Shown here piece after piece: positions 16,143 to 56,513 of a stretch of 64,000 nucleotides of DNA. The stretch spans positions 40,467-104,466 of the forward strand of contig CAZGJW010000001.1 in NCBI GenBank assembly GCA_964525675.1, given 5' to 3'. The stretch comes from an uncultured Spirochaetota bacterium (GTDB taxonomy: Bacteria > Spirochaetota > B62-G9 > DRHN01). The notes beneath the pieces are model-generated. The model was not told where the DNA came from. It saw only the letters and a program-made list of their open reading frames with translations, and ran no database searches. Position 1 is the stretch's first letter, and each line of letters begins with the position of its first letter. The position numbers and the translations under genes are program-made.

Positions 16143-16144
16143 TT

Positions 16145-22900: not shown

Positions 22901-22901
22901 A

Positions 22902-23456
22902 TTACTCCATGATAAATACCGCAGCAGCCATCACAGTGGTCCAGAGCCCGTCCTTATTTCCCTCAGCCGATTGACAGATATTTCTTGTCTTGAAAATATG
23001 GCCGCTTGCCCGGTACACATTCTTTCGCTCATCCCAGGCCTGGTCCGGGTCGAAAGGTATCCCGAGGGTAGTTGCCAGCATAGTTGCAGCCAGGTCTTCC
23101 GCGTAATTGCCCGAAATACGGGCGGTTTCGCCGAAGCTGTGGTGCTCGGCTATGTACCCGTAGTGCTCCCTCTCCTTGGGAACAGCTATACCGATAGCCG
23201 CAGAAACGAGACGATTTGGCTCTCTCGTCCCGTTTCTTGCCAAGACGCAATAGGTGAGCTGGCCGGCCTTTAACATCGCCAGCCCTTCTTCCTTGGTGAT
23301 TATTGCACACATTGGAGGCAAAATGCTCGAAACATAGACCAGGTTACACTTTTCGATGCACGCCTGTCTCAACGCCACTTCGAAAGAAGAGAGCTTGTCG
23401 CGGTGCATACCGACACCCTTGGTAAGGAAGAGTTTTTTCGGAATGAGCCCCATCAT
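22902..23456 (-). CDS. pdaD: pyruvoyl-dependent arginine decarboxylase
   Basis: N-terminal IPKKLFLTKGVGMHRDKLSSFEVALRQA...VYVSSILPP is a near-consensus PdaD start, including the self-cleavage serine region. 184 aa. Confidence 0.85.
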   Translation of the reverse strand: MMGLIPKKLFLTKGVGMHRDKLSSFEVALRQACIEKCNLVYVSSILPPMCAIITKEEGLAMLKAGQLTYCVLARNGTREPNRLVSAAIGIAVPKEREHYGYIAEHHSFGETARISGNYAEDLAATMLATTLGIPFDPDQAWDERKNVYRASGHIFKTRNICQSAEGNKDGLWTTVMAAAVFIME

Positions 23457-24484: not shown

Positions 24485-24918
24485 TTTTCTACACCTCCTT
24501 CTATTTATGCATGTTAAATATACCATGCATTCAGGTACAAATCCATACGTGTATCTATCGGGACACCCTCCCTTCGCACAGCATTTACAAAAACCCACTA
24601 TATTATGCTCACCGTGGAGGGATGGTCAATAAAATTCAAGTACAATATGAGGCATTAATCAAGAAAATTGCGGATATCACAACGGTTTCCACTTGTAATT
24701 ATAAGGATTATAATTATAATCAGTATAGGGGGTGGCAGATCATTCATAATACTTTTCTACCTGTTGGAGTTGGTACCAATAAGTAATACAGGGAAACTTG
24801 TTGACTTCATCGTCTGAACATGTTTATCATAACGCTGTGTTTCCACCAAATAGATATTCACTTCCATGGGCTCTGCATAACTTTATTATCGAGAGAGTAC
24901 GCTACAAGGAATCCCTCA

Positions 24919-31254: not shown

Positions 31255-32142
31255 GTGGTGGCAACTGGCAGGGCCACTGAGTTCGGCAAAATATCGGAAC
31301 GGCTTAAATTAAGGGCGCCAGAAACGGAGTTCCAGCGCGGGGTGCGCCGCTTCGGAAACTTGCTCCTTGAGATAACACTTATGCTGGTCATTTCGATTTT
31401 CGCAATCAACGTATACCTTCACCGCCCTGTTTTGGAGTCCTTTCCCTTTTCCCTTGCCCTCGCTGTGGGACTCACACCACAGCTTCTGCCCGTTATAATC
31501 AGCATCAATCTCGCCCACGGGGCGAAACTTATGGCCCGAAAGCGGGTAATCGTCAAGCATCTACCGGCGATCGAGAACTTCGGAAACATGTTCAGCATGG
31601 CCGGTGCCTCGCTCTTCCTGCCCTTCCTTCCCCTTCTACCAAAGCAAATCCTGTTGACGAATCTGCTGACCGACGTTCCCGAAATGACCATCGCTGCAGA
31701 CCATGTCGATCCTGAAACCGTTAAAAAACCGAGACGGTGGGATATCAGGTTTATACGCAGATTCATGCTCACCTTCGGTGTGCTCAGCTCGGCTTTCGAC
31801 TACGCGACATTCGCCGTGCTGCTTCTGTTGCTTCACGCATCAACTGAGCAGTTCAGGGCGGGGTGGTTCATCGAGTCGGTGGTATCCGCAACCCTCATTG
31901 TGCCGGTTATCAGAACGCCGAAGATTTGCCTCAAAGGCCGTCCTCACATGTCACTCGTCATTGCTACCCTGATCATTGCTGCAGTAATTCCATACAGCCC
32001 GCTTGCGAGGATTTTCTCTTTCCAGAAGGTTCCTCCTGTCTTCCTCCTCGCCGTCGGCTGTATCATTAGTACATATGTCGTTGCTGTTGAACTGGTGAAA
32101 AAACTATTCTATAAAACTGTACAGGTTAAGGCGCTTGACTAG
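31255..32142 (+). pseudogene. mgtA: remnant of Mg2+-importing P-type ATPase (MgtA-like): missing the N-terminal third and carrying a clean in-frame deletion of the whole P/N catalytic domains
   Basis: TEFGKI (end of the A-domain), TM3, and TM4 with LAVGLTPQLLP...KRVIVKHLPAIENFGNM are joined directly to FLPFLPLLPKQILLTNLL...KKPRRWD...RFML, which is the MgtA C-terminal TM bundle. There is no DKTGT or GDGxND. An in-frame stop lies 24 nt upstream of the GTG start. Confidence 0.6.
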
Positions 32143-35155: not shown

Positions 35156-35469
35156 GGTAGAATCCCTCCTGTGTTACGTCTATTCCTGCTGTCGATATAC
35201 TTTCCCGATTACCGGCAGATCTCGATACTTTTTATGGCTCAGTCGTTTCACGGAGCTCATCCCTGCAAGCGTTTCTATGAGATGCAGGTACCGACTCGAA
35301 TACCGCAGCAGTTTTCCTCTGGCTATTTGGGTTTCTTCACCTTAACATAGAACCCCCCTTTCAGATATAAAAAAATGTCGCCCGTGTGGGCTGCATGTTA
35401 TTCAGCCGATTTCGGCATTTCAAAATGTGTTTGCTGACAATGCGATATTGCCAGAGATAGGCTTAAATA

Positions 35470-35625
35470 TAGGTAAGTAAACTTATCAATCTTAGAAGTT
35501 GAAAATTATCACTTACCTGATGGTTTTTACCTAAAGTATGTAATATTACGGCAATGTAGTATAATATAGTCATTTGTATTCGAAATTCTGGTACAAAATG
35601 CCAGAATTCTAATGGATAAAACCAT
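35470..35625. repeat. structured ~157-bp repeat element, copy A; it contains the palindrome AATTCTGGTACAAAATGCCAGAATT and the inner inverted repeat AGGTAAGT/ACTTACCT
   Basis: About 98% identical to the reverse complement of 48779-48935. A diverged same-orientation copy lies at 38672-38786. Confidence 0.8.
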
Positions 35626-35660
35626 AGCTGAATAGTTACGTTTTTTATTAACTTTTAAGG

Positions 35661-38033: not shown

Positions 38034-38671
38034 CAAAGAGTCGCTCTATAACTGCCTCTTGATAGATGTGCAATTTTCCTGTTATTTTGCAGGAAGCTTT
38101 TTACGCAACCTCTGCGCTATGTTCCTTTCAATGAGTATGATCTCGGCTCTCCTGTTCTTTGCCAATATCTAACTCAAGGATATTGTGTATCTTTTTTTTC
38201 AGCACGTTTGAGCATTCGTAACTATTCATTTCTCTTTCAAAACGTCTTTTCAAACCTAAAGAGTGATGTTTTTAAAATAGAAGGGCAAACTTGAAGTCAG
38301 GGAAGTGAATACTTTCTATTCATCATTACCTTGTTCATCCTTAGGTCGTTCCATGATTAAATCCTCACCCGCCTGTTTTGTTTCACTAATCTTTTGCTCA
38401 AGTTCTGCTTTATCATTCTTAAGTGATTTTACAGTCTTCTTGAGTCTTCTATTTTTAAATATGATAAAAATACAGGACAAATTACTATACTTCGAGGTAT
38501 AAACCATAGCAATTGGCGTCTTTCTTACAGGTAAAGCTAAAAGCAACAGTAAAAGAAATTATTTATGGTTTTATCCTTCTTCTGCTGCTCTTCAGTTCTG
38601 AGTACCTTCCCACTTCTGCAGCCTTCAAAAATAGGCAAGTGAACTTCCAAACGTAAAAGGTTCAAATCGAC

Positions 38672-38786
38672 ACTTGCCTAATGGTTTTTACCTATAGAAT
38701 GCAATGATAGGTAATTGTAACATAATAAGTCAGTTGAGCATCAAAATTCTGGTACAAAAAACCAGAATTTTGATGGATAAAACCAT
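38672..38786. repeat. diverged partial copy B of the repeat element (same orientation as copy A)
   Basis: It shares AATGGTTTTTACCT...AAATTCTGGTACAAAAAACCAGAATTTTGATGGATAAAACCAT with copy A at about 75% identity. Confidence 0.6.
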
Positions 38787-38980
38787 AATTTTAATATTCA
38801 CGAAATGAAAACCGGCCTTCTCATTAACATTCTACCCGGAACAGAACATTTAATCAACAAAGAAGTTATTCGGACGCTTCGCGTCCGAATAATGCCGCCG
38901 GTGAGCAGCGATACGAAGACGCATTTCTTCCGAATAGTTCAACTAATTGTAAACCATTTTTTCTCAAAAGGAAAAATCTC

Positions 38981-39250
38981 TTGACTGATATGCTCAGAAT
39001 ATACACATTAATACATATAATACTATGTATCAGAGCCTTCAAGGAGACCAAGATGAGAACCACATTAAATATAGACGACACACTGATTGAAAGAGCATCC
39101 AAATTAACAGGGATAAAGGAAAAAACGTCTCTGGTAAAACGCGGTTTGGAATCGTTGATTGCTCTTGAAAGCAGCAAAAGACTTTCACAATTGGGGGGTA
39201 GTGAAAAAAAACTGAATCCTGTTCCCCGAAGAAGAACATCGGGTGAATGA
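38981..39250 (+). CDS. vapB: type II antitoxin, VapB/ribbon-helix-helix-like
   Basis: MRTTLNIDDTLIERASKL start. 89 aa. The stop overlaps the vapC start. Confidence 0.6.
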   Translation: MTDMLRIYTLIHIILCIRAFKETKMRTTLNIDDTLIERASKLTGIKEKTSLVKRGLESLIALESSKRLSQLGGSEKKLNPVPRRRTSGE

Positions 39251-39620
39251 TATGGTTCTGGTCGATACATCTGTCTGGATATCCCACCTGCGCACTGGCG
39301 AGCCTGATCTTGAGATTCTCCTCAACAACGGGAATGTTATCTGTCATTTGTTTATAATCGGAGAACTTGCCTGCGGCAATCTGAAGAACCGGTCTGAGAT
39401 TCTTTCACTTCTCCAGGCGCTCCCCCGGGCCGAATGTGCCGGTGATGAAGAGGTCCTGTACTTTATCGAAAAAAACCATCTTACGGGCAGGGGAATAGGA
39501 TATATTGACGCTCATCTGCTCGCTTCCGCGGTGCTGACTGACGCCCCGATATGGACCTTCGACGTACAGTTACAGAAGGCAGCATCTAATTTAGGTTTGA
39601 GCGCAGGGACCCATGAATAA
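39243..39620 (+). CDS. vapC: type II toxin VapC (PIN-domain ribonuclease)
   Basis: MVLVDTSVWISHLR with conserved PIN acidic residues. 125 aa. Confidence 0.75.
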   Translation: MNDMVLVDTSVWISHLRTGEPDLEILLNNGNVICHLFIIGELACGNLKNRSEILSLLQALPRAECAGDEEVLYFIEKNHLTGRGIGYIDAHLLASAVLTDAPIWTFDVQLQKAASNLGLSAGTHE

Positions 39621-40869
39621 AAAAGATATACCCCCCTACTTTTCTACAGGTGAAAAAGGCTCCTTTGCAGAAAAAACCCTTCAATGGAGAAAACCCTCCA
39701 TAGTGGACAGGGTCATCAAGGCGAATAGTTTCAACCATAGCCAGAAAAAGGCGCTTATATCTCTTAAAAATGAGATAACGGCAGGCAGGATTACAAATCC
39801 CTTCAACGACCCCGCAGTTCACATCGATACGATGGAGGAAAAATCTCTTTCCATCTGGAGGCGTGAGGTTTCCCGCTATGAGGGGGGATCGTGGCTCGAT
39901 ATCCCCTTCTATTTCGCCGAGGCTTACTTCTACATGAGAATTCTCATTGCAGTCGGATACTTCGACATGACATCATCCTTTCATATGAAAGACCCGTACA
40001 GGCCGTTCAAAGAACGGGAGCTCTATGAAGAAAACGGCGGGCTCGAGTTAGGAAGAACACTCGTCGGGCTTTTGGAGGATCGTCTCTTTGAAACCGGGCG
40101 CCCTATCAAAGAGAAAAAGAAGGAGCTTAAATCCATCCTCTATTACGAGCTCTGGGGCAACCGGGTCGATTTGAGTCTCTACTATATTGCAGACGATTCG
40201 AGGGAAAAAACCTCGGAACATGAGTCGCATAACCTTCTCATCGATCACAGCGAGCGGCTCATCGATCTTCTGGGCATGGCGGGCAGGCGGATCGACATCA
40301 TATTAGACAACTCGGGGCAGGAACTGGTGTGTGACCTGATTCTCACATGGTATCTTCTTGCGACCTCACCCGAAAGAAAAATCCATCTCCATGCGAAAAA
40401 ATACCCATTCTACGTGTCTGATGCGATGGCAAATGATGTCCTGGAGACCATCAGTGCGCTTCGGGCCGACAGAGACGAGGCACTGTCTCGTATCGGGCAA
40501 GAGCTTTTCGGGTTTCAGGAGCAGGGGAGGCTTTTTCTGCACGACCATTACTTCTGGAACAGCCCCCTTGGGTACGACCAGCTGCCGGAAGGCATCTCAC
40601 AGGAGCTTGCGCTATCTGACATGGTTCTTCTCAAGGGAGACGTAAACTACAGGAGGATGCTTTCAGACAGGAAGTGGGAGATGTCGCGAAACATGGAAGA
40701 ACTGACCGGGGTTTTCCCCACATCATTTACGCTTATCCGAACCATGAAGAGCGAATGCATCGTTGATATTGACAACTACAGGGCACAGGAACTTTTTATA
40801 AAGGACCCCGACTGGCTCGTAAACGGGGTTCGCGGTATTATCAGGGTGGTCGAAAAGAGCCGGGTATGA
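39613..40869 (+). CDS. DUF89/ARMT1-like protein (damage-control phosphatase family)
   Basis: IILDNSGQELVCDLILTWYLL fits the DUF89 DNxGxE...D metal-site pattern. 418 aa. Confidence 0.5.
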   Translation: MNKKDIPPYFSTGEKGSFAEKTLQWRKPSIVDRVIKANSFNHSQKKALISLKNEITAGRITNPFNDPAVHIDTMEEKSLSIWRREVSRYEGGSWLDIPFYFAEAYFYMRILIAVGYFDMTSSFHMKDPYRPFKERELYEENGGLELGRTLVGLLEDRLFETGRPIKEKKKELKSILYYELWGNRVDLSLYYIADDSREKTSEHESHNLLIDHSERLIDLLGMAGRRIDIILDNSGQELVCDLILTWYLLATSPERKIHLHAKKYPFYVSDAMANDVLETISALRADRDEALSRIGQELFGFQEQGRLFLHDHYFWNSPLGYDQLPEGISQELALSDMVLLKGDVNYRRMLSDRKWEMSRNMEELTGVFPTSFTLIRTMKSECIVDIDNYRAQELFIKDPDWLVNGVRGIIRVVEKSRV

Positions 40870-41043: not shown

Positions 41044-41334
41044 TTGAGCCTGTACCGCGTACACTTCAAGTGGAAAGATAAGGAGATGCAGCTTACCGCA
41101 AAAAGCCTTGATCTCACACACCCCTACTTCGTCTCGATAAAGGATATCGTCTTCCCTGAAGAAAAAAAGCTCATTATAAACCCTTCCGAGGACGACTTTC
41201 GAAAGACATTCAGCGAAGCGAACCACCTCATGATCCCCTTCCAATCGGTCGTTCTGATAGAGGAGCTTCCCGAAAAGGGGAAACCCAGAGTCATGAAGTT
41301 TGAAAAAGTTGAAAAGGATAAAAAGAACAAATAA
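41044..41334 (+). CDS. hypothetical small protein (96 aa)
   Basis: Complete ORF upstream of the first MttB paralog. No motif I can recognise. Confidence 0.3.
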   Translation: MSLYRVHFKWKDKEMQLTAKSLDLTHPYFVSIKDIVFPEEKKLIINPSEDDFRKTFSEANHLMIPFQSVVLIEELPEKGKPRVMKFEKVEKDKKNK

Positions 41335-41383: not shown

Positions 41384-42892
41384 ATGGCGCTTCGCGGATA
41401 TATGAGAAAGTTCCCTCCGTTCAAGATCCTGTCCGACGATCAGGTCGAGCATATCCATCACGGTACGCTCGATGTGCTTGCCGAATCAGGTGCAAAAATC
41501 TATCATGATGAGGCATTAAAGGTTTTCAAGAAGGCAGGCTGCAACGTCGATTTCGAGACAAAGCTGGTAAAGTTTCCGCCCGCGCTTGTGGAGGAGAGCC
41601 TGCGTAACTGCCCGGGCAGTTTTCGCGTAAAATCAAGAAATCCTGCGCACGATCTCATTCTCAGTCAGGACCATGTGGTGTTTTTCAACTTTCCGGGAAG
41701 AGACATCGTCGACCTCGACACCTGGGAATCACGGCCACCGACGAGGCAAGAGCATATAGATCTCGTCCGTGTTCTGGATTTTCTGCCGACCGTTCATTTT
41801 CTCAACAACTACCCCTACTTCGGATACAGGGGTATACCTGAGACCATGAAAGAGATGGAAGGGGCCGCCATCCGACTTGCGTATTCAACCAAGGTAACCA
41901 TGGAGATAGCAAACAATGACAATGACCGCTTTACCTTTCAGGCAGCCAAAGCCCTGGGGACCGAGATGTTCGCAAACCCGAACACCTCATCCCCCCTCAC
42001 CTGCTACACAGACCAGACGAACGCATGCTTCCTCGCAGCAGAACATGGCTTTCCAAGCATGATATGGGACGGTGCAACAGCCGGAAGCACCGCACCGGCG
42101 AGCATTGCAGGCGCCGTAGTTATGAGTAATGCAGAGATAATCCCATATATCGTGCTCCTCCAGCTTTTGAAACCCGGTTCCCGCGTTGCCGTTGCCAACC
42201 TTGTGCTCCCTCAGAACATGAAAACAGGAGCGCCCGCCTTCGGCGATATCGGCGTCAGCCTACACACCGCCGCCTACAACCAGGTATGGCGGTATTACGG
42301 AGTCCCTACGGTCGCCTCTTCTTCCGGCGTGAGTAATTCGAAGATGATAGGGTTTCAGCTCGCATATGAAAAGACTATACCAAGCCTTATCGGCGCAATG
42401 TCCGGTTCGAGCGCGGTGCAGCTGCACAGCAGTGTATATGGCGAAATAAGCGCTCATCCTGTTCAGGCTGTTCTCGATGATGATATTGCGGGCATGATAG
42501 GAAGATTTGTCCAGGGCATCGAGGTAAGCGAGGACTCCCTTGCAGTTGATCTTATGAATGAAGTGGGTCCCATACCGGGCCATTTCCTCGGCAAGGCGCA
42601 CACCCGACAATGGTGGGAAAAAGAGCAGTACGTTACGAAAAGTACAGACCGAGTCTCTTATCCGGAATGGGTCATCAGCGGGAAAAAAACCGCGGTTGAT
42701 TACGGAAAAGAGCGTGTCGAAGAAATCCTTGCAACCCATACAGTAGACCCTCCCCTGACCGATAAGGAGACAGAGGGGGTTGGGCGAATTCTCAGGGAGG
42801 CACGGCAGTACTATAAAAAGCATGAGCTTATATCAGATGCGGAATGGGAGGAGTATAAAAAAACCCTGAAAGAGGAAGGGCGGCCGTTTTAG
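41384..42892 (+). CDS. MttB-superfamily methyltransferase (trimethylamine/quaternary-amine:corrinoid methyltransferase family), non-pyrrolysine type
   Basis: 502 aa. Family-wide N-terminal K(F/L)(P/K)PxxILSxEQxEHIHxGTLxVLxxTG and TIM-barrel body. No in-frame amber codon. The RBS is AAGGAGG. Confidence 0.85.
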   Translation: MALRGYMRKFPPFKILSDDQVEHIHHGTLDVLAESGAKIYHDEALKVFKKAGCNVDFETKLVKFPPALVEESLRNCPGSFRVKSRNPAHDLILSQDHVVFFNFPGRDIVDLDTWESRPPTRQEHIDLVRVLDFLPTVHFLNNYPYFGYRGIPETMKEMEGAAIRLAYSTKVTMEIANNDNDRFTFQAAKALGTEMFANPNTSSPLTCYTDQTNACFLAAEHGFPSMIWDGATAGSTAPASIAGAVVMSNAEIIPYIVLLQLLKPGSRVAVANLVLPQNMKTGAPAFGDIGVSLHTAAYNQVWRYYGVPTVASSSGVSNSKMIGFQLAYEKTIPSLIGAMSGSSAVQLHSSVYGEISAHPVQAVLDDDIAGMIGRFVQGIEVSEDSLAVDLMNEVGPIPGHFLGKAHTRQWWEKEQYVTKSTDRVSYPEWVISGKKTAVDYGKERVEEILATHTVDPPLTDKETEGVGRILREARQYYKKHELISDAEWEEYKKTLKEEGRPF

Positions 42893-42993
42893 GATCATCC
42901 TGAATGTAATCGTGAGCACCCGTGGGGAAACAACAGGAACAGACCGCAGCCAATAGCTGTGATATATGATATGGAGAGGAAGGTGGTGTAAAG

Positions 42994-44445
42994 ATGTCTA
43001 TAAAAGGTTTTTCGAGGAATTTCAAACCGCTACAGATTCTTTCTGAAGAACAGGTTGAAGATATCCACCGAGGTGTTCTCGCAGTTTTGCAGAATACAGG
43101 GCTGAGATTTGAAAGCAAGCTGGCGCTTAAAACCTTCGAAAAAAATGACTGCTCAGTAGACTATGAGGAGATGAGGGTAAAATTTCCGCCTGGGCTCGTT
43201 GAGGAATGCCTTCGAAAAACACCGAGCAGTTTCTACTTTAAATCAAGAGACCCCTCATGCGATCTGATTGTCGGCGGCAACACAACCTACTTCTGCTCTT
43301 TCCCGGGGATGAACACCGTTGACCTCAATACCTGGGAGGCGCGAAGGGCGACAAGAGAGGAAAACAAAGAGGCCCTCATTGTACTTGATGCCCTTGAAAA
43401 CCTCCATTTTTTAACTCCCTACACGCCCTATTTCGGCTTTGATTCCACTCCTCCAGTGATGTCCATACCGGAAAGCACTGCGGCAAAGATCAAATATACA
43501 ACAAAGCTGCAGTTTTCCGGGTACCAGAAAGATTGTGAAATCTTCACGATAGAAATGGCGAATGCTGCGAATACCGAAATTCAGGGGATGATGGAAAGCT
43601 CACCTCCTCTCACCTTTTATGAAGACGCGGCCATGTCTGCCTACCGGTATGCCAAGGCAGGCCTTCCGCTCCATATCACCTCAGGGGCTATCATGGGTGG
43701 GACGTCACCTGCAACCATTGCCGGCACACTCGTCACCAGTGTCGCGGAAATCGCAGGAGGTATTGTGTTCGTACAGCTTGTCAGGCCAAATACGAGAGTC
43801 ATTGCAAATGCCTTCGTTTTTCCCCAAAACATGATGACCGGCCTGCCCTTCTTCGGGTCAGTGGGCATCTCACTTCACGAAGCGGCCTTTAATCAGATAT
43901 GGCGAAAGTACGGCATTCCTGTGCAGAGCTCGGCGATCGGGCCTACGAATTCGAAGATGATTGACTACCAGAACTGTTATGAAAAGTCGATCCCTGCGCT
44001 GACCGCTGCAATGTCCGGAGCCCACATAATACAGTTCCACGGCGGCGTGTACGGCGAATTGACGTATCATCCTGTTCAGTCAATTATGGATGATGATGTT
44101 GCGGGGGTTATCGGTCGTCTTATCGAGGGATTTGAAGTATCGGATGAAACACTGGCCATAGATCTTATCAAAGAAACAGGGCCGATACCGGGCTTTTATT
44201 TAAATACCGCACATACAAGAAACTGGTGGAAAAAGGAACAGTTCGTCCCCAGGGTGGCGGATCTCCTTCCCTACGGGCAGTGGGAAGCCGGGGGAAAAAA
44301 ATCTGCTCTCGACAGGGCAAAAGAACGGATGAAAGAGATAGTTGAAACTCACAGGCCTGTTCCCCTGTCTGATGAACAGGAGAGAGAGATTGATAATATT
44401 CTGGAAAAAGCCAGAAACTACTACAGAAAAAAGGGGTGGCTCTGA
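42994..44445 (+). CDS. MttB-superfamily methyltransferase paralog 2 (non-Pyl)
   Basis: 483 aa. The same conserved blocks as 41384-42892 (for example HPVQxxxDDDxAGxIGR, GPIPGxxLxxxHTRxWWKKEQ). Confidence 0.85.
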   Translation: MSIKGFSRNFKPLQILSEEQVEDIHRGVLAVLQNTGLRFESKLALKTFEKNDCSVDYEEMRVKFPPGLVEECLRKTPSSFYFKSRDPSCDLIVGGNTTYFCSFPGMNTVDLNTWEARRATREENKEALIVLDALENLHFLTPYTPYFGFDSTPPVMSIPESTAAKIKYTTKLQFSGYQKDCEIFTIEMANAANTEIQGMMESSPPLTFYEDAAMSAYRYAKAGLPLHITSGAIMGGTSPATIAGTLVTSVAEIAGGIVFVQLVRPNTRVIANAFVFPQNMMTGLPFFGSVGISLHEAAFNQIWRKYGIPVQSSAIGPTNSKMIDYQNCYEKSIPALTAAMSGAHIIQFHGGVYGELTYHPVQSIMDDDVAGVIGRLIEGFEVSDETLAIDLIKETGPIPGFYLNTAHTRNWWKKEQFVPRVADLLPYGQWEAGGKKSALDRAKERMKEIVETHRPVPLSDEQEREIDNILEKARNYYRKKGWL

Positions 44446-44468
44446 ATTTTTATTCAAAGGCATGGTAC

Positions 44469-44789
44469 ATGGAACTTTTTGAAGAAATCACTCACGCTCG
44501 TAAAATCCTTGGAGTGGCGGAGTCAGCCACCCTGAAACAGATTCAAAAAAATTATAGAGACCTGGTCAAGAAATGGCATCCCGATCGATGCCGGGAAAAA
44601 AAAGAAATATGCAGGGAAAAAACCTCTTTGATTCTGCAGGCGTATAAAACCATAAGAGACTACTGCAATAATTACCGCTTTACTTTTTCCCGGGAGGAGA
44701 TAGAAAAATATATGCCGGATGAAGAGGTCTGGATAAAAAAATACGGAAGCGACCCCATCTGGGGGAGGCACCATCCGGGGAACAAATGA
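44469..44789 (+). CDS. small J-domain (DnaJ-like) protein
   Basis: ARKILGVAESATLKQIQKNYRDLVKKWHPDR carries the HPD motif. I moved the start to the ATG at 44469; the longer ORF begins inside the mttB paralog 2 stop region. Confidence 0.45.
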   Translation: MELFEEITHARKILGVAESATLKQIQKNYRDLVKKWHPDRCREKKEICREKTSLILQAYKTIRDYCNNYRFTFSREEIEKYMPDEEVWIKKYGSDPIWGRHHPGNK

Positions 44790-44940
44790 GAAGTAATTTC
44801 TGCCAAGCGATGTGTGTAACCATGCTCGAATCAATAATCGTGAGGGGTATTATTTTTTCAGTCTTTACACCATATCTATAAATCAAAGTGTGTGTTAATG
44901 TATGGTAAAATATTTAAATATATAACCGGAGGGACCTATA

Positions 44941-45594
44941 ATGGATGATGAAACCAAGACAATTCTTGAAAATCTGAGAAAGGCTGTCTTCGAGTACGAC
45001 AACGATCTGGCTGCTAAGTCGGCCACGCAGTCAGTTGAAAAAGAAATCGACCCGCTCGAAGCCCTCGATGTAATGACCACAGCCATCAGAGAAATTGGAG
45101 ATGCCTTTGGAACAGGGGAACTCTGGCTCCCCGATCTCGTCGGTGCATCCGATGCAATGCAGTCGGCGGTGCCAATACTGGAAAAAGAGATCAAAAAGAG
45201 GGGCGCGCATAGAGAGTCTCTGGGAAGAGTTGTAGCAGGCACGGTATTCGGCGATATTCACAGCATAGGAAAGACCATGGTGGCCACCCTCCTCACTGCT
45301 GCGGGATTCGAGGTGCATGACCTGGGTGTAAATGTAAATGCGAAAGGCTTTATAGATGCAGTGAGCAAGTACAATGCCAACCTGGTTGTTATGTCAGCGC
45401 TTATGACCACAACATGTGTTGAGCAGGAAAAGGTGGTTGCAGAATTAAAGAAGGAGGGGTTGAGGGAGAAGGTTAAGATCATGGTAGGAGGAGCTGCCGT
45501 TACCGAGGAATTTGCCGAGACGATCGGTGCTGACGGGTATGATCCGACTGCGCCGGGCGCTGTCGCCCTGGCAAAGAAGCTGCTGGGAAAATAG
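44941..45594 (+). CDS. corrinoid (cobalamin-binding) protein, MtbC/MttC-like
   Basis: A B12-binding_2 helical cap followed by a Rossmann B12-binding domain with a DxHxxG motif (GDIHSIGK). 217 aa. Confidence 0.85.
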   Translation: MDDETKTILENLRKAVFEYDNDLAAKSATQSVEKEIDPLEALDVMTTAIREIGDAFGTGELWLPDLVGASDAMQSAVPILEKEIKKRGAHRESLGRVVAGTVFGDIHSIGKTMVATLLTAAGFEVHDLGVNVNAKGFIDAVSKYNANLVVMSALMTTTCVEQEKVVAELKKEGLREKVKIMVGGAAVTEEFAETIGADGYDPTAPGAVALAKKLLGK

Positions 45595-45624
45595 GTATGT
45601 TGTGGTCCATAAGGAGATTTTATT

Positions 45625-47136
45625 ATGGCAATAAAAGGATATACACGAAATTTCCCCCCTTTAAAAATCCTGAGCGATGAACAGATAGAGCAAATTCATA
45701 CCGGCACATTGAAAGTGCTTAAAAAGACAGGTGTGCGGTTTGACAGCGAAAGAGCGTTAAAGCTTTTTGAAAAAAACAGGTGCACCGTTGACTACGGCAG
45801 CAACAGGGTGCGGTTTCCCGAGGCATTAGTGGAGGAATCGTTACGGAGCTGCCCGAGCAGGTTCCATGTACAGGCAAGAAATCATGAAAATGACATGGTC
45901 TGGGGTGGTAATACAACATATTTTCAGGCCCTGGCCGGCACAAGGACGGTTGATCTTGATACATGGAATCCTCGAACGCCCACGAGAAAAGAGTACTATA
46001 ATGGAATTACTGTTCTCGATGCACTGGAAAATGTGAGTATTATTCCATGGTACACACCATGGTTCGGGTTCAAGAATATCCCGCCTGTTATGGCCATGCC
46101 TGAAGGCCTTGCCGCACGATTGAGGAACTCAAGTAAATTTACATGCGCCGGTTATTCTATGGGGTGTGAGGTGTTTAATATACAAATGGCTCAAGCTGCC
46201 GGTACAGAGCTGAGAACCATGATGGCCGCCTCCCCTCCACTGACTTTTTATGATGAGACGATCGATGCTGCCTACAGGATCATAGAAGCCGGGTTTATCC
46301 TTCTCCCGACTTCCGGATGTGTGTACGGCGGCACTGCTCCTGCTACAATTGCTGGCTCATTAATAAGCGGGAATGCTGAAATCATTGCAGGAATAATATT
46401 TGCCCAGCTCATCAAACCGGGAACGAGAATAATAGTACAGGATTTTTCCTTTCCGCAGAACATGAGAACAGGCGCTCCTGCGTTCGGGTCAATTGAAATT
46501 TCAATGCACCAGGCAGCATTTAACCAGATCTGGCACTGGTATGGAGTCCCCACAGACGGAGCGGTATGCTATCCCAATTCAAAAATGATAGATTATCAAT
46601 CAGGGTACGAAAAAGCTATTATTGCTTCGATAGGAGCGCTGTCCGGCACAAATACAATATGGATTCAGGGTGCACTGTATGGTGAGCTCGCCTTTCATCC
46701 TGTGCAGGCAATAATCGATGATGATATTGCAGGTATGCTCGGAAGGTTCCTGGGGGGTGTTAACGTCACCGAGGAGACCATGGCAAAAGACGTCATCGAT
46801 GAGGTGGGGCCTATCCCGGGTCATTATCTCAATACAAAACATACCAGGAAGTGGTGGAAAAAAGAGCAGTTTATTCCAAAATCAGCCGACAGATTAACGC
46901 ATCCGGAATGGTTAAAAACGGGTAAAAAAGACTGTATTGAGCTCGCCAGGGAAAAATATGAAGAGATATGTGAGACGCACAGGGTAAATCCCCCGCTGAC
47001 TGAACATCAGGAACAGGACATAGAAAAAATCCTGAAAGAAGCGCGGGAACACTATAGAAAAAAGGGGCTCATTTCTGATGCTGAATGGGAATACTATCAG
47101 AAGGATATTGCATCCACCGGCTATCCATATGAATAG
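45625..47136 (+). CDS. MttB-superfamily methyltransferase paralog 3 (non-Pyl)
   Basis: 503 aa. The same conserved blocks and no in-frame stop. Confidence 0.85.
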   Translation: MAIKGYTRNFPPLKILSDEQIEQIHTGTLKVLKKTGVRFDSERALKLFEKNRCTVDYGSNRVRFPEALVEESLRSCPSRFHVQARNHENDMVWGGNTTYFQALAGTRTVDLDTWNPRTPTRKEYYNGITVLDALENVSIIPWYTPWFGFKNIPPVMAMPEGLAARLRNSSKFTCAGYSMGCEVFNIQMAQAAGTELRTMMAASPPLTFYDETIDAAYRIIEAGFILLPTSGCVYGGTAPATIAGSLISGNAEIIAGIIFAQLIKPGTRIIVQDFSFPQNMRTGAPAFGSIEISMHQAAFNQIWHWYGVPTDGAVCYPNSKMIDYQSGYEKAIIASIGALSGTNTIWIQGALYGELAFHPVQAIIDDDIAGMLGRFLGGVNVTEETMAKDVIDEVGPIPGHYLNTKHTRKWWKKEQFIPKSADRLTHPEWLKTGKKDCIELAREKYEEICETHRVNPPLTEHQEQDIEKILKEAREHYRKKGLISDAEWEYYQKDIASTGYPYE

Positions 47137-47195
47137 AAGCTTATTCATTTCAAACGAACCCTGCCTCAAGGTTATGCGAAAGGATTATTCTGTAG

Positions 47196-47945
47196 ATGGG
47201 TTTATCAAGCTCTATTATCGAACGAATGTCTGAACCTGCAGAAAACTACACCATAAAACGAGTGCAGGCAGGCCTCATATATTCCGCAGTTCAGCTCGAT
47301 AACAACGCCGCCGGCGTTGCCTACACCTTCCCGATGAAAGAGCACTGCAGTCCCGGAATGCGCCGCGACCAAAAACCACTGACAGGAAGAAAGGCCGTTG
47401 AGCTGATCCCTTATCTGGGAGATAAGAACCTGGTAATGTCCTCTCTCGCACTCGCAGCGATAAACGCCCTGCTTGCAACAGAAGAGATTCCTGAAGGTGT
47501 GAGTTTCGGGGATATTCTGGGCAACCTCGATATTCGGAAAGGGGATCAGGTCTGCATGGTGGGAAGCTTTCTGCCGCTTCTTCCCGCTCTGGAGAAGAGG
47601 CATGTTCGAGTCGTTGCTGTTGATGAAACACCAAAGCCTCATACAGGGCCGCCTGAAGATGCTGAAAAGCTTCTTCCCGAAAGTCAGGTTGCCATCATTA
47701 CCGGTACAGCAGTTATCAACAACACAATTGACCGCATGCTGGTGCTTGCCCGAACCTGCCGTGAGGTCGCCGTGCTTGGAGCTTCCACCCCATTGCTGAA
47801 AGAGGCGTTTGTCGACACTTCGGCAACCTGCCTTTCGGGAATCAGAGTGACGGAGCCTGAAAAGGTGCTTCAGACAATAGGCGAGGGATTAGGGTTCAGA
47901 GAGTTCAAAAAATATGTTCGCAAAGTAAACCTGAGGCTCAAATAA
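47196..47945 (+). CDS. DUF364/DUF4213-like Rossmann-fold protein (putative cofactor/metal-handling protein associated with corrinoid systems)
   Basis: 249 aa. A glycine-rich Rossmann-like core. Positioned between mttB paralog 3 and the TsaA-like gene. Confidence 0.45.
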   Translation: MGLSSSIIERMSEPAENYTIKRVQAGLIYSAVQLDNNAAGVAYTFPMKEHCSPGMRRDQKPLTGRKAVELIPYLGDKNLVMSSLALAAINALLATEEIPEGVSFGDILGNLDIRKGDQVCMVGSFLPLLPALEKRHVRVVAVDETPKPHTGPPEDAEKLLPESQVAIITGTAVINNTIDRMLVLARTCREVAVLGASTPLLKEAFVDTSATCLSGIRVTEPEKVLQTIGEGLGFREFKKYVRKVNLRLK

Positions 47946-47981
47946 AATTACTTTGATACAACAGGCAAAGGGAAAAAGTAT

Positions 47982-48773
47982 ATGGACGGCGCTGAAGAAA
48001 CTCTGTTAAATGGTGAGAAAATAAAATCCCTGCTGCTGTACTTGCTGAGTCATAATAAAGAGCATCTGAAGGAAAACGAGAAATGGGTGAAGATGATTCA
48101 GCAGGCCGGTTTCGAAGAAATTGCCCATACGATCAAAGAAATCAATACATTGACAGAGACAGCCAATCAGCACCTTGAATACGCTAAAAAAAAACTCGAG
48201 GATAGTAGCGGAAAGTGCCAACCAGCAGTTAAGGAAAAGAAAAAAAATGATGTAATCCTAGAGACGCAGCATACTGAAAAACCTGCTCTTTTTGAATTCA
48301 GGCAGATCGGAACCATACATACTCCCTATACCGATAACGCGCCGTACCAGCCGGTTGAAGAGGATCAGGGAACATTTTCTGTAGAGCTTTTTCAACAGTA
48401 TACCGACGGCCTCGCTGAGTTAAACCGATTCTCTTACATGTATGTACTCTATTACGTACACAAACTACAGCGGAAACCCGCTATGATGACATCTCCTCCG
48501 TGGGCCCACGGCAAAACTGTCGGCGTGTTCGCAAGCCGTTCCCCTGTACGGCCAAACCTCATAGGACTGAGTATTGTTCGTATAAAACGGATCGTGGAAA
48601 ACAAAATATACACGTCGGGACTTGATGTGTTTGATGGTACACCGCTCCTCGATATCAAGCCCTATATAAAAGATCTCGATTCGAAGGATGACGCTGATTA
48701 CGGCTGGATTGAAGATTTGAAAGGGTATGAACATTTGCTTTTGCATATCAAAGGCATACCTCACGAGTATTGA
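47982..48773 (+). CDS. TsaA/YaeB (TrmO)-like SAM-dependent methyltransferase with an extra N-terminal ~100 aa
   Basis: The C-terminal 160 aa (GTIHTPY...RPNLIGLSIVRI...GTPLLDIKPY) match the TrmO beta-barrel family. Confidence 0.65.
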   Translation: MDGAEETLLNGEKIKSLLLYLLSHNKEHLKENEKWVKMIQQAGFEEIAHTIKEINTLTETANQHLEYAKKKLEDSSGKCQPAVKEKKKNDVILETQHTEKPALFEFRQIGTIHTPYTDNAPYQPVEEDQGTFSVELFQQYTDGLAELNRFSYMYVLYYVHKLQRKPAMMTSPPWAHGKTVGVFASRSPVRPNLIGLSIVRIKRIVENKIYTSGLDVFDGTPLLDIKPYIKDLDSKDDADYGWIEDLKGYEHLLLHIKGIPHEY

Positions 48774-48778
48774 GAAGT

Positions 48779-48935
48779 ATGGTTTTATCCATTAGAATTC
48801 TGGCATTTTGTACCAGAATTTCGAATACAAATGACTATATTATACTACATTGCCGTAATATTACATACTTTAGGTAAAAACCATTAGGTAAGTGATAATT
48901 TTCAACTTCTAAGATTGACAAGTTTACTTACCTAT
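48779..48935. repeat. repeat element copy C (inverted orientation relative to copy A)
   Basis: Reverse complement of 35470-35625 with only 2-3 mismatches. Confidence 0.8.
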
Positions 48936-48985
48936 TTATTTGTATTGTCATTAAATTTTATTCAACAGTAAAGGAACCATGCACA

Positions 48986-49615
48986 ATGAACAGTCATACA
49001 TCATTTAAAGGATACTCCTTGGTATCCTGCGGGACATTGCGTGATGAAGTAGAGTATTTGGAAAAAACAGGCTTTTTGGATGCGGATAAGGTATTATTTA
49101 CAGCACCCGGCCTGCATGAAAAGCAGAAGGAACTACAAAAACAGCTTGTAAGGCAGCTTGAAAACGCAAGAAAATACTCCGAGAAAGTAATCGTACTGTA
49201 CGGGGAGAGATGCTATCTCGATCCGGACGATCCTTCAAGAGACATAAACCGACTCCTCGCGGAAAACGGACCCGATCTTTCACAGGTGCACGCCAAAAAC
49301 TGCATAGATATGCTTGCGGACGAGGATGAGAGGGAAGAAATTCGAAACGGGAGAAAGATATACTGGCTTACGCCAGGGTGGGTAAAATACTGGAAGATAA
49401 TTTTCAGTAAATGGGATGTCGGTATGGCAAATGAAACCTTTCCCGGGAATGATTCAGCAATCGTGCTGGACGCAATCGGCTCCTTTGATGAAATTTGCGA
49501 AAAGGAGCCCGAAAAGATACTTGAATTCTCAGACTGGATGAAACTCGGCATTGAATCACATCAAGTGACCTTAGACCGGTTTAAAGAACTTCTGCTGGAG
49601 CAGATCAACCAATAA
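48986..49615 (+). CDS. DUF1638-like protein (family recurrently adjacent to corrinoid methyltransferase genes)
   Basis: 209 aa. This assignment comes from overall resemblance only. Confidence 0.4.
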   Translation: MNSHTSFKGYSLVSCGTLRDEVEYLEKTGFLDADKVLFTAPGLHEKQKELQKQLVRQLENARKYSEKVIVLYGERCYLDPDDPSRDINRLLAENGPDLSQVHAKNCIDMLADEDEREEIRNGRKIYWLTPGWVKYWKIIFSKWDVGMANETFPGNDSAIVLDAIGSFDEICEKEPEKILEFSDWMKLGIESHQVTLDRFKELLLEQINQ

Positions 49616-49794: not shown

Positions 49795-50122
49795 ATGCTT
49801 CTCATGGGGAAAAAAAGAGTGCTGTTCGTCTGTGTTCATAACTCCGCGCGAAGCCAGATGGCTGAATCCTATCTCCACAGGCTTGCTGGAGACAGATTCG
49901 AGGTGGAGAGCGCGGGGCTGGAACCCGGTACCATCAACCCAACCCGTGTTAGAAAAGTGCGGGATTCGATCAAGGAAAAAATCCTTCAATTTATTCAGAC
50001 TGCATAAGGTTCTTGCCCATTCTCTAAAATTATGTAAATTTCTAGTTGAGGTGAAAAATAATTATGGGCGACGAGTTTTTTTCTCACAGCATGTTCGGAG
50101 ACGAGACCCTCGAAGAGGTTGA
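49795..50122 (+). pseudogene. arsC: arsenate reductase / LMW-PTP family (ArsC, thioredoxin-coupled type), frameshifted remnant
   Basis: [17 protein letters not shown]-loop. The reading frame ends after 70 aa; a weak continuation (NPV.EKCGIRS) appears in the +1 frame of ORF 49832-50122. Confidence 0.4.
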
Positions 50123-55034: not shown

Positions 55035-56513
55035 TCAAGTGCTGACGATACTTCGCGTCACTTTGCCGAAATGTAGTCCGTAAATCGCAAGCTCCACCGC
55101 AACGGGAAACGCCTTAGATTTGGTAAACAGGGTCTTGAAGAGGAGCCTCCAGTATCTGAGCCTGGATTCCGAGACAATGCCGATACGCCACATGCTCTTA
55201 ACAAAGGCCTTGATATCCTCTATCGTAATCGTTCCCCGTGCCGTAGGCTGGTAGTTATCGATGAATGTATCGATTCTTTTGTAGTAATATTTTGGTGAGT
55301 AGATTGTCGAAAGAATTTTTTTGTACCCTGCAACAAGCTTTTTCTTCCCCATTTTCGGAACAAAGTTCAGGCTGCCGTCCGTGTTCTCTCCGGTTGTGTC
55401 TTTGAGAAGCCTGTTTTCAGATTTAAGCCTTCGCCACAGGCCTGTTTGCGGCAGCGCATTGAGCAGGCCGACCATGGCTGTGACAACGCCGATTTGCTGA
55501 ATGAATTTTATCTGAGCCTCGAATATCCGTTCCGTGTCACTGTCAAATCCGACAATAAATCCTCCCATAACCTGCATGCCGTTCTGCTGTATGATCTTTA
55601 CCGACTCCGAGAGGCTCCGGGTCACATTCTGCGTCTTGCGGCATTCTTTCAAACTATCAATGTTGGGAGTTTCAATACCAAGAAACACCTTCGAAAAATT
55701 CGCATCCTTCATCAGTACCATTAATTCCTCGTCGTCCGCCAGGTTCGTGCTGGCTTCGGTCAAAAGCTTATACGGGTATCGATGCTCCTTCTGCCATGCT
55801 ATAAGTGACGGCAGCATTTTTTTTACCCGCGCTTTGTTTCCGATGAAATTATCATCAACTATGAACAAAGACCCCCGCCAGCCTTCGTCGTAGAGCAGCT
55901 GTATTTCATGCAGCAACTGTTCAGGGCTCTTCGTTCTGGGAATCCTCCCGTTCATGACAATGATGTCGCAGAATTCGCAGTTGAACGGGCATCCCCGTGA
56001 ATACTGCACAACCATCGACGCGTAATTCCTGAAGTCGATCAGCGACCACAACGGGGCAGGCGTTTTTGTAATATCCGGCCTTTTTTCGGATGTGTAGAGG
56101 TGCCGGGGATTCCCCTTTTTCAAGTCTTCAAGAAAAAGAGGCAGGGTGATTTCCGCTTCATTCAGCACAAAATGATCGACTCCCTGAAACTCTTCATGCC
56201 TCGTCGTAAACAGGGGTCCACCTGCAACAATTTTTTTGCCGTACAGGGCACATTTTCTGATGATTTCCAGTGCATTTTCTTTCTGTACGATCATTGCGCT
56301 GATAAACACGATATCCGCCCATACAATATCTTCTTCCTTCAGGTCTGAAATATTCACATCAACGAGTTTCTTGTTCCACTCCTCAGCTAGCATAGAGGCA
56401 ACCGTCATAAGCCCCAGCGGAGGAAATGCCGCCTTCTTGGAAATGAATCTAAGAATATATTTGAAGCTCCAGAAGGTGTTTGGGTACTTTGGATAGACCA
56501 GTAAAACGTTCAT
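55035..56513 (-). CDS. B12-binding-domain radical SAM protein (class B, DUF4070 C-terminal)
   Basis: N-terminal cobalamin-binding Rossmann domain, then YSRGCPFNCEFCD (CxxxCxxC). 492 aa. Confidence 0.8.
   Translation of the reverse strand: MNVLLVYPKYPNTFWSFKYILRFISKKAAFPPLGLMTVASMLAEEWNKKLVDVNISDLKEEDIVWADIVFISAMIVQKENALEIIRKCALYGKKIVAGGPLFTTRHEEFQGVDHFVLNEAEITLPLFLEDLKKGNPRHLYTSEKRPDITKTPAPLWSLIDFRNYASMVVQYSRGCPFNCEFCDIIVMNGRIPRTKSPEQLLHEIQLLYDEGWRGSLFIVDDNFIGNKARVKKMLPSLIAWQKEHRYPYKLLTEASTNLADDEELMVLMKDANFSKVFLGIETPNIDSLKECRKTQNVTRSLSESVKIIQQNGMQVMGGFIVGFDSDTERIFEAQIKFIQQIGVVTAMVGLLNALPQTGLWRRLKSENRLLKDTTGENTDGSLNFVPKMGKKKLVAGYKKILSTIYSPKYYYKRIDTFIDNYQPTARGTITIEDIKAFVKSMWRIGIVSESRLRYWRLLFKTLFTKSKAFPVAVELAIYGLHFGKVTRSIVST

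Follow-up and report, generated by a model that had tools for sequence, protein, structure and literature searches.

Results

Gene content of the MttB cluster

The window, by which we mean the whole 64-kb stretch of DNA analyzed here, comes from an uncultured Spirochaetota bacterium and carries a plus-strand gene cluster built around three members of the MttB methyltransferase superfamily and one corrinoid protein (CoP). An earlier, sequence-only reading had described this cluster, and all the genes named in it were found by inspection of the open reading frames (ORFs), their translations, and Pfam and NCBIfam matches. MttB1 (41384-42892, 502 aa), MttB2 (42994-44445, 483 aa), and MttB3 (45625-47136, 503 aa) each contained a full-length PF06253 domain, with scores of 248.5, 250.8, and 248.5 bits, respectively, against a cutoff of 25 (E about 1e-74). 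The corrinoid protein (44941-45594) comprised a PF02607 cap domain (B12-binding_2) and a PF02310 B12-binding domain with the motif GDIHSIG (DxHxxG). The profile search showed that it was the only corrinoid protein in the window, so the earlier statement that three MttB proteins have one corrinoid protein between them was borne out. Its TIGR02370 score was 189.5 bits, which is under the family cutoffs for MtgC and MtbC.

The accessory genes of the earlier reading were also present. These were a J-domain gene with the HPD motif (44469-44789; DnaJ PF00226, E = 1.7e-12, 47.6 bits against a cutoff of 27.8), a DUF4213+DUF364 gene whose Pfam domains are enolase-N-like and Rossmann-like (47196-47945), a DUF8180+TrmO_N gene (47982-48773; PF26551 and PF01980 by Pfam/NCBIfam) whose product resembles beta-barrel S-adenosylmethionine (SAM) methyltransferases, a DUF1638 gene (48986-49615; PF07796 over residues 40-203, 78.8 bits against a cutoff of 27), and a DUF89/ARMT1-like gene (39613-40869; PF01937, E = 2.9e-54, 184.8 bits), the last lying upstream of the range given before. 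One small gene had been overlooked: a DUF1820 gene at 41044-41334 (PF08850, E = 5.4e-15; alternative ATG at about 41095), which in tblastn was 75% identical to its ortholog in L019, one of the related loci used for comparison, to which the L-numbers refer.

The J-domain gene had been thought to overlap the stop codon of MttB2. The ORF reaches GTG 44436 solely by extension, and the J domain was still detected when translation was started at ATG 44469. Because the J orthologs are 102-103 aa long and their alignment begins at residue 7-11, the overlap is probably not real; it was rejected as an ORF-extension artefact, and ATG 44469 is the likely start.

The three MttB paralogs and their substrate pockets

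None of the three MttB ORFs contained an internal stop or a UAG codon, and their lengths equalled those of their orthologs, as expected from the earlier description of full-length, amber-free homologs. The full-length MTTB domain and the cognate DxHxxG corrinoid protein place them in the MttB superfamily. With TIGR02369, the equivalog model for pyrrolysine (Pyl)-containing MttB, the scores of MttB1, MttB2, and MttB3 were 296.7, 293.2, and 314.1 bits, all below the cutoff of 525. Pyl334 of M. barkeri MttB (MbMttB; X in PDB 7xcl), the founder of the superfamily, aligned to Tyr316 of MttB3, and its column held Val in MttB1 (with Gly one column earlier), Pro in MttB2, and Tyr in MttB3; the alignment of MbMttB to the window proteins spanned the TIM-barrel core. 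When the orthogroups were aligned with MAFFT, the Pyl/Leu317 column held Val or Pro in MttB1, Pro in MttB2, and Tyr in MttB3. A tRNA scan found zero tRNA genes in the window, hence no pylT, and pyl genes were likewise not in the window. Judged from their sequences, the three genes are non-Pyl members of the superfamily.

The paralogs were 47-55% identical in pairwise comparison. They matched each other at about 500 bits, and the references DhMtgB (D. hafniense MtgB) and MbMttB, to which the comparison was limited and whose sequences were taken from PDB alignments, at 171-198 and 144-162 bits, respectively. A neighbor-joining tree of 81 MttB sequences from the compared loci placed each window paralog in its own orthogroup; DhMtgB was the outgroup and root, so that the tree speaks to the grouping of the paralogs and not to their placement relative to DhMtgB. 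The mutual divergence that had been claimed thus holds for orthogroups and pockets, but the three proteins are far closer to each other than to DhMtgB or MbMttB.

Each orthogroup had its own pocket residues (MtgB numbering throughout). The MttB1 orthogroup had the invariant signature F-N-F-P-G, V312, and Q347, and the MttB3 signature was D312, Y317, and W347. The MttB2 orthogroup had Gln at the R312 position, Pro at 317, and Gln at 347. Because the pocket residues are invariant within each orthogroup, the paralogs appear to be functionally differentiated. The wider clade of MttB1 and MttB3 had the motif WW(K/E)KEQ in common.

In MtgB, glycine betaine is bound by Y97 and F356 through cation-pi contacts and by R312 and H348 through its carboxylate (PMC13080624). 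These ligands were not kept in the window proteins: Y97 was replaced by Pro, Pro, or Ser/Ala, R312 by Val in MttB1, Gln in MttB2, and Asp in MttB3, and H348 by Leu/Ile, Phe, or Ile, while F356 fell in a gap across the whole clade. By these residues and the Pyl column, the window proteins should be neither Pyl-MttB nor MtgB.

MT2 and activase genes

In corrinoid systems of this kind, a substrate:corrinoid methyltransferase (MT1) loads the corrinoid protein and a second enzyme (MT2) unloads the methyl-corrinoid protein. Pfam analysis of the larger window ORFs gave no match to PF01208 (URO-D), PF00809 (Pterin_bind), or RACo/RamA. Profile hidden Markov models derived from the related loci (URO-D, RACo, and Pterin_bind) gave no match among all window ORFs of at least 50 aa, and tblastn for MT2 and activase at E<=1 returned chance-level matches alone. 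All three approaches agree with the earlier statement that the window holds no MT2 or RamA-type gene. About 8 kb to the right of the window, available from a near-identical JGI contig, likewise contained no MT2 or activase; it carried an ATP-cone/PRK gene, a phosphonate-type ATP-binding cassette (ABC) system, a polysaccharide deacetylase gene, and an aldo-keto reductase gene. Among the best 120 of 3783 matches of a URO-D profile search, none lay on the 112-kb contig of the window or on the 137- and 139-kb contigs. Measured against a complete operon with MT1, CoP, MT2, and activase in cis, the cluster therefore lacks MT2 and a RamA/RACo activase. An Rfam scan of the window found no cobalamin riboswitch and no other family.

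MttB1 and MttB3 are inherited as a pair

MttB1-type orthologs with 65-79% identity, together with MttB3-type partners, were found in Spirochaetota, Aerophobetes, and Actinomycetota, and one MttB1-type gene stood alone in an Anaerolineales metagenome-assembled genome (MAG). The two genes were clustered together in L001, L005, L006-8, L009, L027, L028, L030, L031, L035, L036, and L037 as well as in the window lineage. Every locus with enough flanking sequence, except L029 and L032, had both types and a single corrinoid protein. The order in these loci was CoP-MttB1-MttB3 or CoP-MttB3-MttB1, and the MttB genes were often 2-40 nt apart or overlapping. MttB3 orthologs with 75-81% identity sat in URO-D-CoP-MttB-MttB-URO-D operons of Spirochaete-like loci. 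MttB2-type orthologs (80-81% identity) were seen solely in Spirochaetota loci, where they joined the pair in the trio clusters L027 and L028; in these two loci all three orthologs and the corrinoid protein were 75-81% identical to those of the window.

The sequence-only reading had suggested three different substrates for the three paralogs. Functional differentiation speaks for this, but independence of the three is questionable because MttB1 and MttB3 are a tightly linked pair. Their co-inheritance and tight coupling would fit a heteromer or linked steps better than unrelated substrates, and MttB1 and MttB3 may be subunits of one enzyme or may carry out two demethylations that follow one another or are related.

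Canonical partners and carbohydrate genes in orthologous loci

Beyond the window lineage, canonical partners usually accompanied the pair. Among them were URO-D proteins, whose best NCBIfam matches were MtaA/CmuA, below cutoff. A RACo activase gene was found in L009, L030, L031, and L035-L037; for the activase of the pair loci the best match was AcsV, below its cutoff, and the RamA subfamily model also matched. The pterin-binding methyl-tetrahydrofolate:corrinoid methyltransferase of these loci passed PRK07535 with 298.7 bits against 259. Besides the three MttB orthologs and CoP, L028 had two URO-D genes and CUT1 permeases. Two URO-D paralogs of about 400 and 412 aa, 34-37% identical, flanked CoP-MttB-MttB in the Spirochaete-type operons of L001, L005-L008, and L028, and numerous proteins closely related to the 412-aa type occurred in Clostridia, Bacteroidota, Verrucomicrobiota, and Hydrogenedentota.

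Transport and carbohydrate genes were frequent neighbours. A CUT1 binding protein and two permeases were encoded in L005, L006, L009, L028, L030, L031, and L071, and the binding proteins were nearest to those for maltose, trehalose, sorbitol, and sulfoquinovosyl-glycerol; L036 had a CUT2 sugar ABC system. The arrangement FucI-solute-binding protein-permeases-(RhaM)-URO-D-CoP-MttB3 was found in both L006 and L071, from organisms only about 69% identical in DNA, with the L-fucose isomerase gene directly upstream of the importer. RhaM and LacI genes were present in L006, a mannose-6-phosphate isomerase gene in L001 and L005, and a GH4 glycosidase gene with a GlcN6P-isomerase-like gene in L031.

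For an unbiased census, 140 ORFs within 3 kb of MttB or CoP genes were taken from the wider clade, represented by 26 further genome loci. The most frequent families were BPD_transp_2 (13), Peripla_BP_4 (7), ABC_tran (7), RACo (6), and Peripla_BP_1 (6), followed by xylose-isomerase-like TIM barrels (5), Zn-dependent dehydrogenases (5), and BPD_transp_1 (5), and then by URO-D (4), SDR (4), Pterin_bind (4), SBP_bac_1 (3), and LacI (3). Neither BCCT nor OpuAC was among the 25 families listed in this census.

The accessory genes in the spirochaete lineage

A genome scan showed that the closest clusters were in the uncultured Spirochaetota MAGs CAYSRJ01 (92% MttB1 identity) and CAZFTJ01 (88%), followed by a Guaymas Basin Spirochaetes MAG (75%); MttB1 identity was 65-71% in Aerophobetes, Actinomycetota, and Anaerolineales. 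A proteobacterial source, the label of a single 3.9-kb contig, was rejected because the long contigs belong to Spirochaetota MAGs. The narrow lineage compared here comprises the window, L010, L019-L026, L042, and L074. Its gene order, with short gaps, is DUF89-DUF1820-MttB1-J-CoP-MttB3-DUF364-TrmO-DUF1638, so that the J gene in the ancestral order is directly upstream of the corrinoid protein gene. DUF89 was kept in every lineage locus reaching far enough upstream (L010, L019-L026, and L074). Among the sampled loci, the accessory set of DUF89, DUF1820, J, DUF364, TrmO-like, and DUF1638 genes was confined to this Spirochaetota lineage. Within the lineage, MttB2 was found in the window alone; the segment 42891-44465 had no counterpart in L019, and L010 and L042 had a 5'-truncated extra MttB instead, flanked by a repeat resembling a miniature inverted-repeat transposable element (MITE).

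Several accessory genes were decayed. In the sister species the TrmO-like gene had two 1-nt deletions, seen in many independent assemblies, with loss of the last about 75 codons. In L026 the TrmO-like gene was down to 88 codons and the J gene was a 33-codon remnant. The DUF364 gene was intact in L010, L019, and L026, and both DUF364 and TrmO were fragmentary in L042. MttB1, CoP, and MttB3 were intact in all sampled species of the lineage.

The dN/dS values, computed against the sister species, were 0.05-0.07 for MttB1 and 0.07-0.12 for both CoP and MttB3, and these three genes are under purifying selection. The value was 0.09 (0.086) for DUF1638, 0.08-0.10 for DUF1820, 0.13-0.19 for DUF89, 0.15-0.22 for J, 0.20 for the TrmO-like gene, and 0.18-0.24 for DUF364, which gave 0.52 against L026 at a dS of 0.03. 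The dS values also formed a mosaic along the cluster in comparisons with L019, L026, and L010: 0.77-0.91 for MttB1, 0.24-0.25 for MttB3, and 0.03 for DUF364 against L026. This mosaic suggests recent recombination between lineages inside the cluster.

DUF1638 and B12 reactivation

DUF1638 was the sole accessory gene with a published functional link, a genetic one to B12 reactivation. In Phaeobacter inhibens, DUF1638 and a RamA-like protein are needed for a split methionine synthase without the SAM-binding activation domain, and the distribution of DUF1638 mirrors that of RamA (bioRxiv 10.1101/192971). In Ruegeria pomeroyi, DUF1638 is induced together with RamA on glycine betaine (PMC12478193).

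The DUF1638 subfamily was small, with 259 representatives at 50% clustering. Its alignment showed that Cys15 and Cys76 were invariant and that Cys106 and His44 were nearly so. The AF2 model (pLDDT 93.8) had a flavodoxin-like alpha/beta fold with no close solved relative. The metagenomic protein P0406 (396 aa) joins a DUF1638 relative, 57% identical, to a class I SAM methyltransferase. The P0406 methyltransferase has a homolog (42% identity) encoded at 2085-2772 of L029, downstream of an MttB1-type gene and a C-terminal remnant of DUF1638. The NCBIfam model CpaM (corrinoid protein-associated methyltransferase) was the weak top or near-top match for 216-aa methyltransferases beside L001 and L028.

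The remaining accessory proteins

The DUF89 protein matched the eukaryote-type damage-control phosphatases over its full length (PDB 6umq, E = 3.4e-38 over residues 7-410). Its homologs include an S. pombe protein and yeast YMR027W. The family is one of metal-dependent phosphatases, and the window protein is a candidate phosphatase. Yeast and human DUF89 enzymes prefer sugar phosphates. This preference is compatible with a sugar substrate for the cluster, but it is not evidence for one.

The J protein had the sequence KKWHPDRC, and the Zn-finger and C-terminal DnaJ domains were absent. For the DUF364 protein, weak PDB matches to 3npg and 3l5o were obtained, and a metagenome scan with the DUF364 alignment returned two loci, both of the window lineage. 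The single characterised DUF364 member cyclises a SAM derivative (PMC12930334), and the family is otherwise found beside metal ABC transporters (PMC2954201).

The TrmO-like protein scored 115.7 bits with PF01980 and 121.7 bits with TIGR00104 (cutoff 93.25), and it contained the motifs SRSPVRPN and DGTPLLDIKPY, in keeping with a TrmO_N SAM domain. It did not have the canonical two-domain architecture of TrmO: the C-terminal domain was lacking, and the protein ended about 30 residues past TrmO_N. Its N-terminal extension of about 100 aa is DUF8180 (PF26551, precomputed annotation), and the best PDB match was the single-domain protein AF_0241. More than 1000 homologs with the DUF8180+TrmO_N architecture occurred in anaerobic bacteria and archaea; the gene contexts that were sampled did not adjoin MttB. 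A literature search on DUF1820 found nothing.

Discussion

A probable substrate-activating module with partners in trans

Taken together, the cluster probably supplies the substrate-activating half of a canonical system for corrinoid methyl transfer, with the partners encoded in trans. MttB1, MttB3, and MttB2 would act as MT1 enzymes and transfer a methyl group from the substrate to the one corrinoid protein encoded beside them, in its Co(I) state. An MT2, either of the URO-D/MtaA type or of the pterin-binding type, would then pass the methyl group of the methyl-Co(III) protein to tetrahydrofolate or a different acceptor. Corrinoid protein oxidized to Co(II) would be rescued by a RACo/RamA-type activase, probably aided by DUF1638. 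MT2 and the activase would be encoded elsewhere in the genome, as in Eubacterium limosum, which has distinct gene clusters for MT1, for its corrinoid protein, and for MT2/activase and supplies MtqA and RamQ in trans (PMC8604678). The substrate would enter through a carbohydrate-type ABC importer and would be a methylated sugar, deoxysugar, or cyclitol and not a relative of glycine betaine. DUF89, DUF1820, J, DUF364, and the TrmO-like protein would be a lineage-specific addition that is dispensable for the core reaction.

The nearest relatives of this arrangement are the CoP-MttB-MttB-RACo-MeTr and URO-D-CoP-MttB-MttB-URO-D operons with CUT1 or CUT2 importers in L001, L005, L006, L009, L027, L028, L030, L031, L036, L037, and L071, which belong to Aerophobetes, Actinomycetota, Anaerolineales, and other Spirochaetota. 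These uncharacterised operons contain true orthologs and, like the window, a single corrinoid protein. However, they have MT2, activase, and importer in cis and are without J, DUF364, TrmO-like, DUF1638, DUF89, and DUF1820 genes, while the reverse is the case in the window lineage. The locus is a lineage-specific variant of this widespread, uncharacterised MttB-pair system.

The characterised systems resemble the window cluster in part. The MtpB/MtcB/MtyB-MtqC-MtqA-RamQ system of E. limosum also has several differentiated non-Pyl MT1 enzymes and one corrinoid protein (PMC8604678). In contrast to that system, the window corrinoid protein is encoded inside the MT1 cluster, two of the window MT1 genes belong to types kept as a pair in at least four phyla, and the orthologs adjoin genes for carbohydrate importers and sugar enzymes rather than for MFS or amine transporters. 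D. hafniense MtgB/MtgC/MtgA (PDB 2qne and 9yce) is similar in its PF06253 fold, in being free of pyrrolysine, and in its DxHxxG corrinoid protein. MtgB was the best solved-structure match, but its scores were far below those between the window paralogs and its four substrate ligands are not kept in them. M. barkeri MttB/MttC differs in the pyrrolysine itself, as the alignment column and the TIGR02369 scores above show.

The substrate

A methylated carbohydrate or cyclitol is a possible substrate, which we propose tentatively. Candidates are O-methyl fucose or rhamnose, 6-O-methyl-galactose, and pinitol-like O-methyl-inositols. A literature search on MttB or corrinoid enzymes with methylated sugars, pinitol, or cyclitols, or on MttB with fucose, found nothing relevant. 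The carbohydrate or polyol substrate suggested for the clade by gene neighbourhoods would therefore be new. In a wider form the proposal, which we likewise regard as speculative, is that the MttB1/MttB3 pair and the WW(K/E)KEQ clade are corrinoid-dependent methyl-carbohydrate or cyclitol demethylases, joined in the window lineage to a DUF1638-centred, SAM-linked helper module.

Several points weigh against this picture. A carbohydrate substrate is without precedent, because all the biochemically characterised non-Pyl MttB proteins use quaternary amines. The window cluster itself has no adjoining transporter or sugar gene, so that the assignment of a substrate class draws on orthologs with 65-81% identity and on the wider clade. 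In the URO-D operons, the enzymes acting on the sugar side could be the URO-D proteins instead of the MttB pair. The loss of the MtgB ligands was read from a sequence alignment at about 30% identity, with an uncertainty of +/-1 position around 348-356. No MT2 or activase gene was located for this genome in the window and the about 8 kb to its right, and the accessory genes, which are tightly spaced and have dN/dS values of 0.13-0.24 where intact, may still contribute.

The precedent among characterised enzymes leads directly to another explanation, in which three betaine-type methyltransferases serve three osmolyte-derived substrates through one corrinoid protein, as MtpB, MtcB, and MtyB do with MtqC. 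Three differentiated pockets with a single corrinoid protein in common would fit it, as would the almost equal scores that the corrinoid protein obtained with the models for MtgC and MtbC. Related MAGs come from the Guaymas Basin, which suggests a sediment setting, where betaines are common. However, the clade does not retain the aromatic and basic residues with which MtgB binds its ligand (F356 is a gap, and R312 is Val, Asp, or Gln), and MttB1 and MttB3 are inherited as a pair and not independently. In addition, the families listed in the neighbour census do not include BCCT or OpuA-type transporters, while sugar ABC systems, LacI, FucI, RhaM, GH4, and polyol dehydrogenases recur in the orthologous loci. 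We therefore consider the betaine explanation unlikely. The sequence-only reading had assigned the paralogs to the non-Pyl quaternary-amine branch; the first half of this assignment stands, but membership in the amine branch is questionable given the lost MtgB ligands and the carbohydrate-type neighbourhoods.

If carbohydrates or cyclitols are indeed the substrates, the pair would represent an unrecognised anaerobic demethylation of algal and plant methyl-sugars or cyclitols that delivers the methyl group to C1 metabolism. Oxygenase-dependent sugar demethylation would thereby have an anaerobic counterpart, and the MttB superfamily a class of substrate never before shown for it. In anoxic sediments, non-Pyl MttB homologs rank with the most abundant genes whose specificity is unknown, and their routine annotation is trimethylamine or glycine betaine methyltransferase; the reading of such genes in metagenomes would then shift from methylamine cycling to carbohydrate degradation. 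The consistent carbohydrate context of the MttB-pair system is a more valuable lead than the accessory genes.

The role of the accessory genes

The sequence-only reading had suggested that one or more of the accessory proteins could stand in for the missing activase or MT2 step. In its full form this would mean that DUF1638, with the neighbouring SAM-family proteins (TrmO-like and DUF364), uses SAM to methylate the Co(II) corrinoid protein reductively and so reactivates it, in the manner of the MetH activation domain, that one of them may unload the methyl group, and that the J protein recruits DnaK to the corrinoid protein. The absence of a canonical MT2 or activase within 64 kb plus about 8 kb invites such an explanation, and the accessory gene order, with its tight spacing, is kept in several species. 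DUF1638 mutants are methionine auxotrophs in an organism with split MetH, and DUF1638 rises with RamA on glycine betaine. Its conserved Cys, Cys, Cys, and His residues could be ligands for a metal or Fe-S cluster. SAM methyltransferases are found in the fusion protein P0406, as the P0406 homolog of L029, and as the CpaM-like proteins encoded beside L001 and L028. The only DUF364 enzyme characterised so far binds a SAM derivative. A link between the J chaperone and the corrinoid protein is conceivable because MtyB needed co-production of its corrinoid protein to fold (PMC8604678).

However, the accessory set is absent from all the sampled loci outside the narrow lineage, and most of the orthologous loci are canonical. 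TrmO, J, and DUF364 have decayed next to intact MttB1, CoP, and MttB3 genes. The DUF8180-TrmO family is widespread and did not adjoin MttB in the other contexts sampled, and the DUF364 metagenome scan returned the same lineage alone. Alphaproteobacterial DUF1638 co-occurs with RamA-like proteins and does not take their place. Replacement of MT2 or the activase by the accessory genes is thus improbable; for TrmO, J, and DUF364 in particular, lineage restriction and decay argue against it.

A modest version of the idea stays alive through DUF1638, which is linked to B12 reactivation and fused to a SAM methyltransferase in P0406: a DUF1638-centred, SAM-linked helper of corrinoid reactivation. This would go together with the canonical system in trans that we favour. 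The split methionine synthase of P. inhibens is similar to the window cluster in that a DUF1638 gene lies beside that for a corrinoid-binding protein, and there it is needed for a B12-dependent reaction; but DUF1638 in P. inhibens accompanies a RamA-like activase, while none was found near the window cluster. DUF1638 being known only genetically as needed for B12 enzymes, the cluster adds comparative evidence on it.

That the cluster is an orphaned, non-functional remnant which lost its importer, MT2, and activase, with neighbours assembled by rearrangement around MITE-like repeats, is very improbable, because MttB1, CoP, MttB3, and DUF1638 are intact in all sampled species of the lineage and strongly constrained by purifying selection (dN/dS 0.05-0.12, with dS reaching 0.9), even though the cluster lies between such repeats, which also flank the truncated extra MttB of L010, gene content varies among close relatives, and dS forms a mosaic.

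Repeats and other features of the window

The MITE-like element is about 165 nt long and has an internal palindrome, AAAATTCTGGTAC...GTACCAGAATTTT. A repeat search and blastn located copies at 35465-35626, at 38627-38790 upstream of vapB, and at 48765-48937 between the TrmO-like gene and DUF1638, the last with a promoter-like site at 48770-48798. The copies at 35.5 kb and 48.8 kb are inverted and 98.7% identical, and those at 38627-38790 and 48765-48937 form an inverted pair bracketing the block from vapBC to TrmO. Further copies were found flanking the truncated extra MttB in L010 and also in L025 and L075/L076. A role of the inverted repeats as the ends of a mobile unit was not supported, since copies also occur at unrelated sites.

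Directly upstream of DUF89 are the genes for a VapB antitoxin (38981-39250, plus strand; PF09957, E = 3.7e-14), a syntenic neighbour kept in L019-L026, and a VapC toxin (39243-39620, plus strand; Pfam PIN), whose 3' end overlaps the start of DUF89. The arrangement of the pair is kept in the sister species, and L019 is arranged alike. The genes 3' of DUF1638 are a truncated LMWPc remnant, clpS, clpA, and aat. The remnant (49795-50007) encodes 70 aa of a low-molecular-weight phosphotyrosine phosphatase. In sister strains the gene encodes 144 aa and is also preceded by one for a MazE-like antitoxin.

The only other protein in the window with a cobalamin domain is a B12-binding radical SAM enzyme with DUF4070 (55035-56513, minus strand). 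A minus-strand run at 15081-24598 contains genes for a deoxyhypusine-synthase-like protein, a pyruvoyl-dependent arginine decarboxylase, an arginase/agmatinase-family protein, and an ATP-grasp protein, together with a PLP-dependent enzyme, an 857-aa DUF1611 protein, a creatininase-family protein, and an MR/MLE enolase-superfamily protein; it looks like a polyamine-derived biosynthetic cluster. At 31255-34720, a 295-aa ORF with C-terminal P-type ATPase parts alone is followed by an MprF-like lysyl-phosphatidylglycerol synthase gene. In the sister strains merely a 91-aa LPG_synthase_C fragment adjoins the phosphorylase gene, which indicates that this region is rearranged between close relatives.

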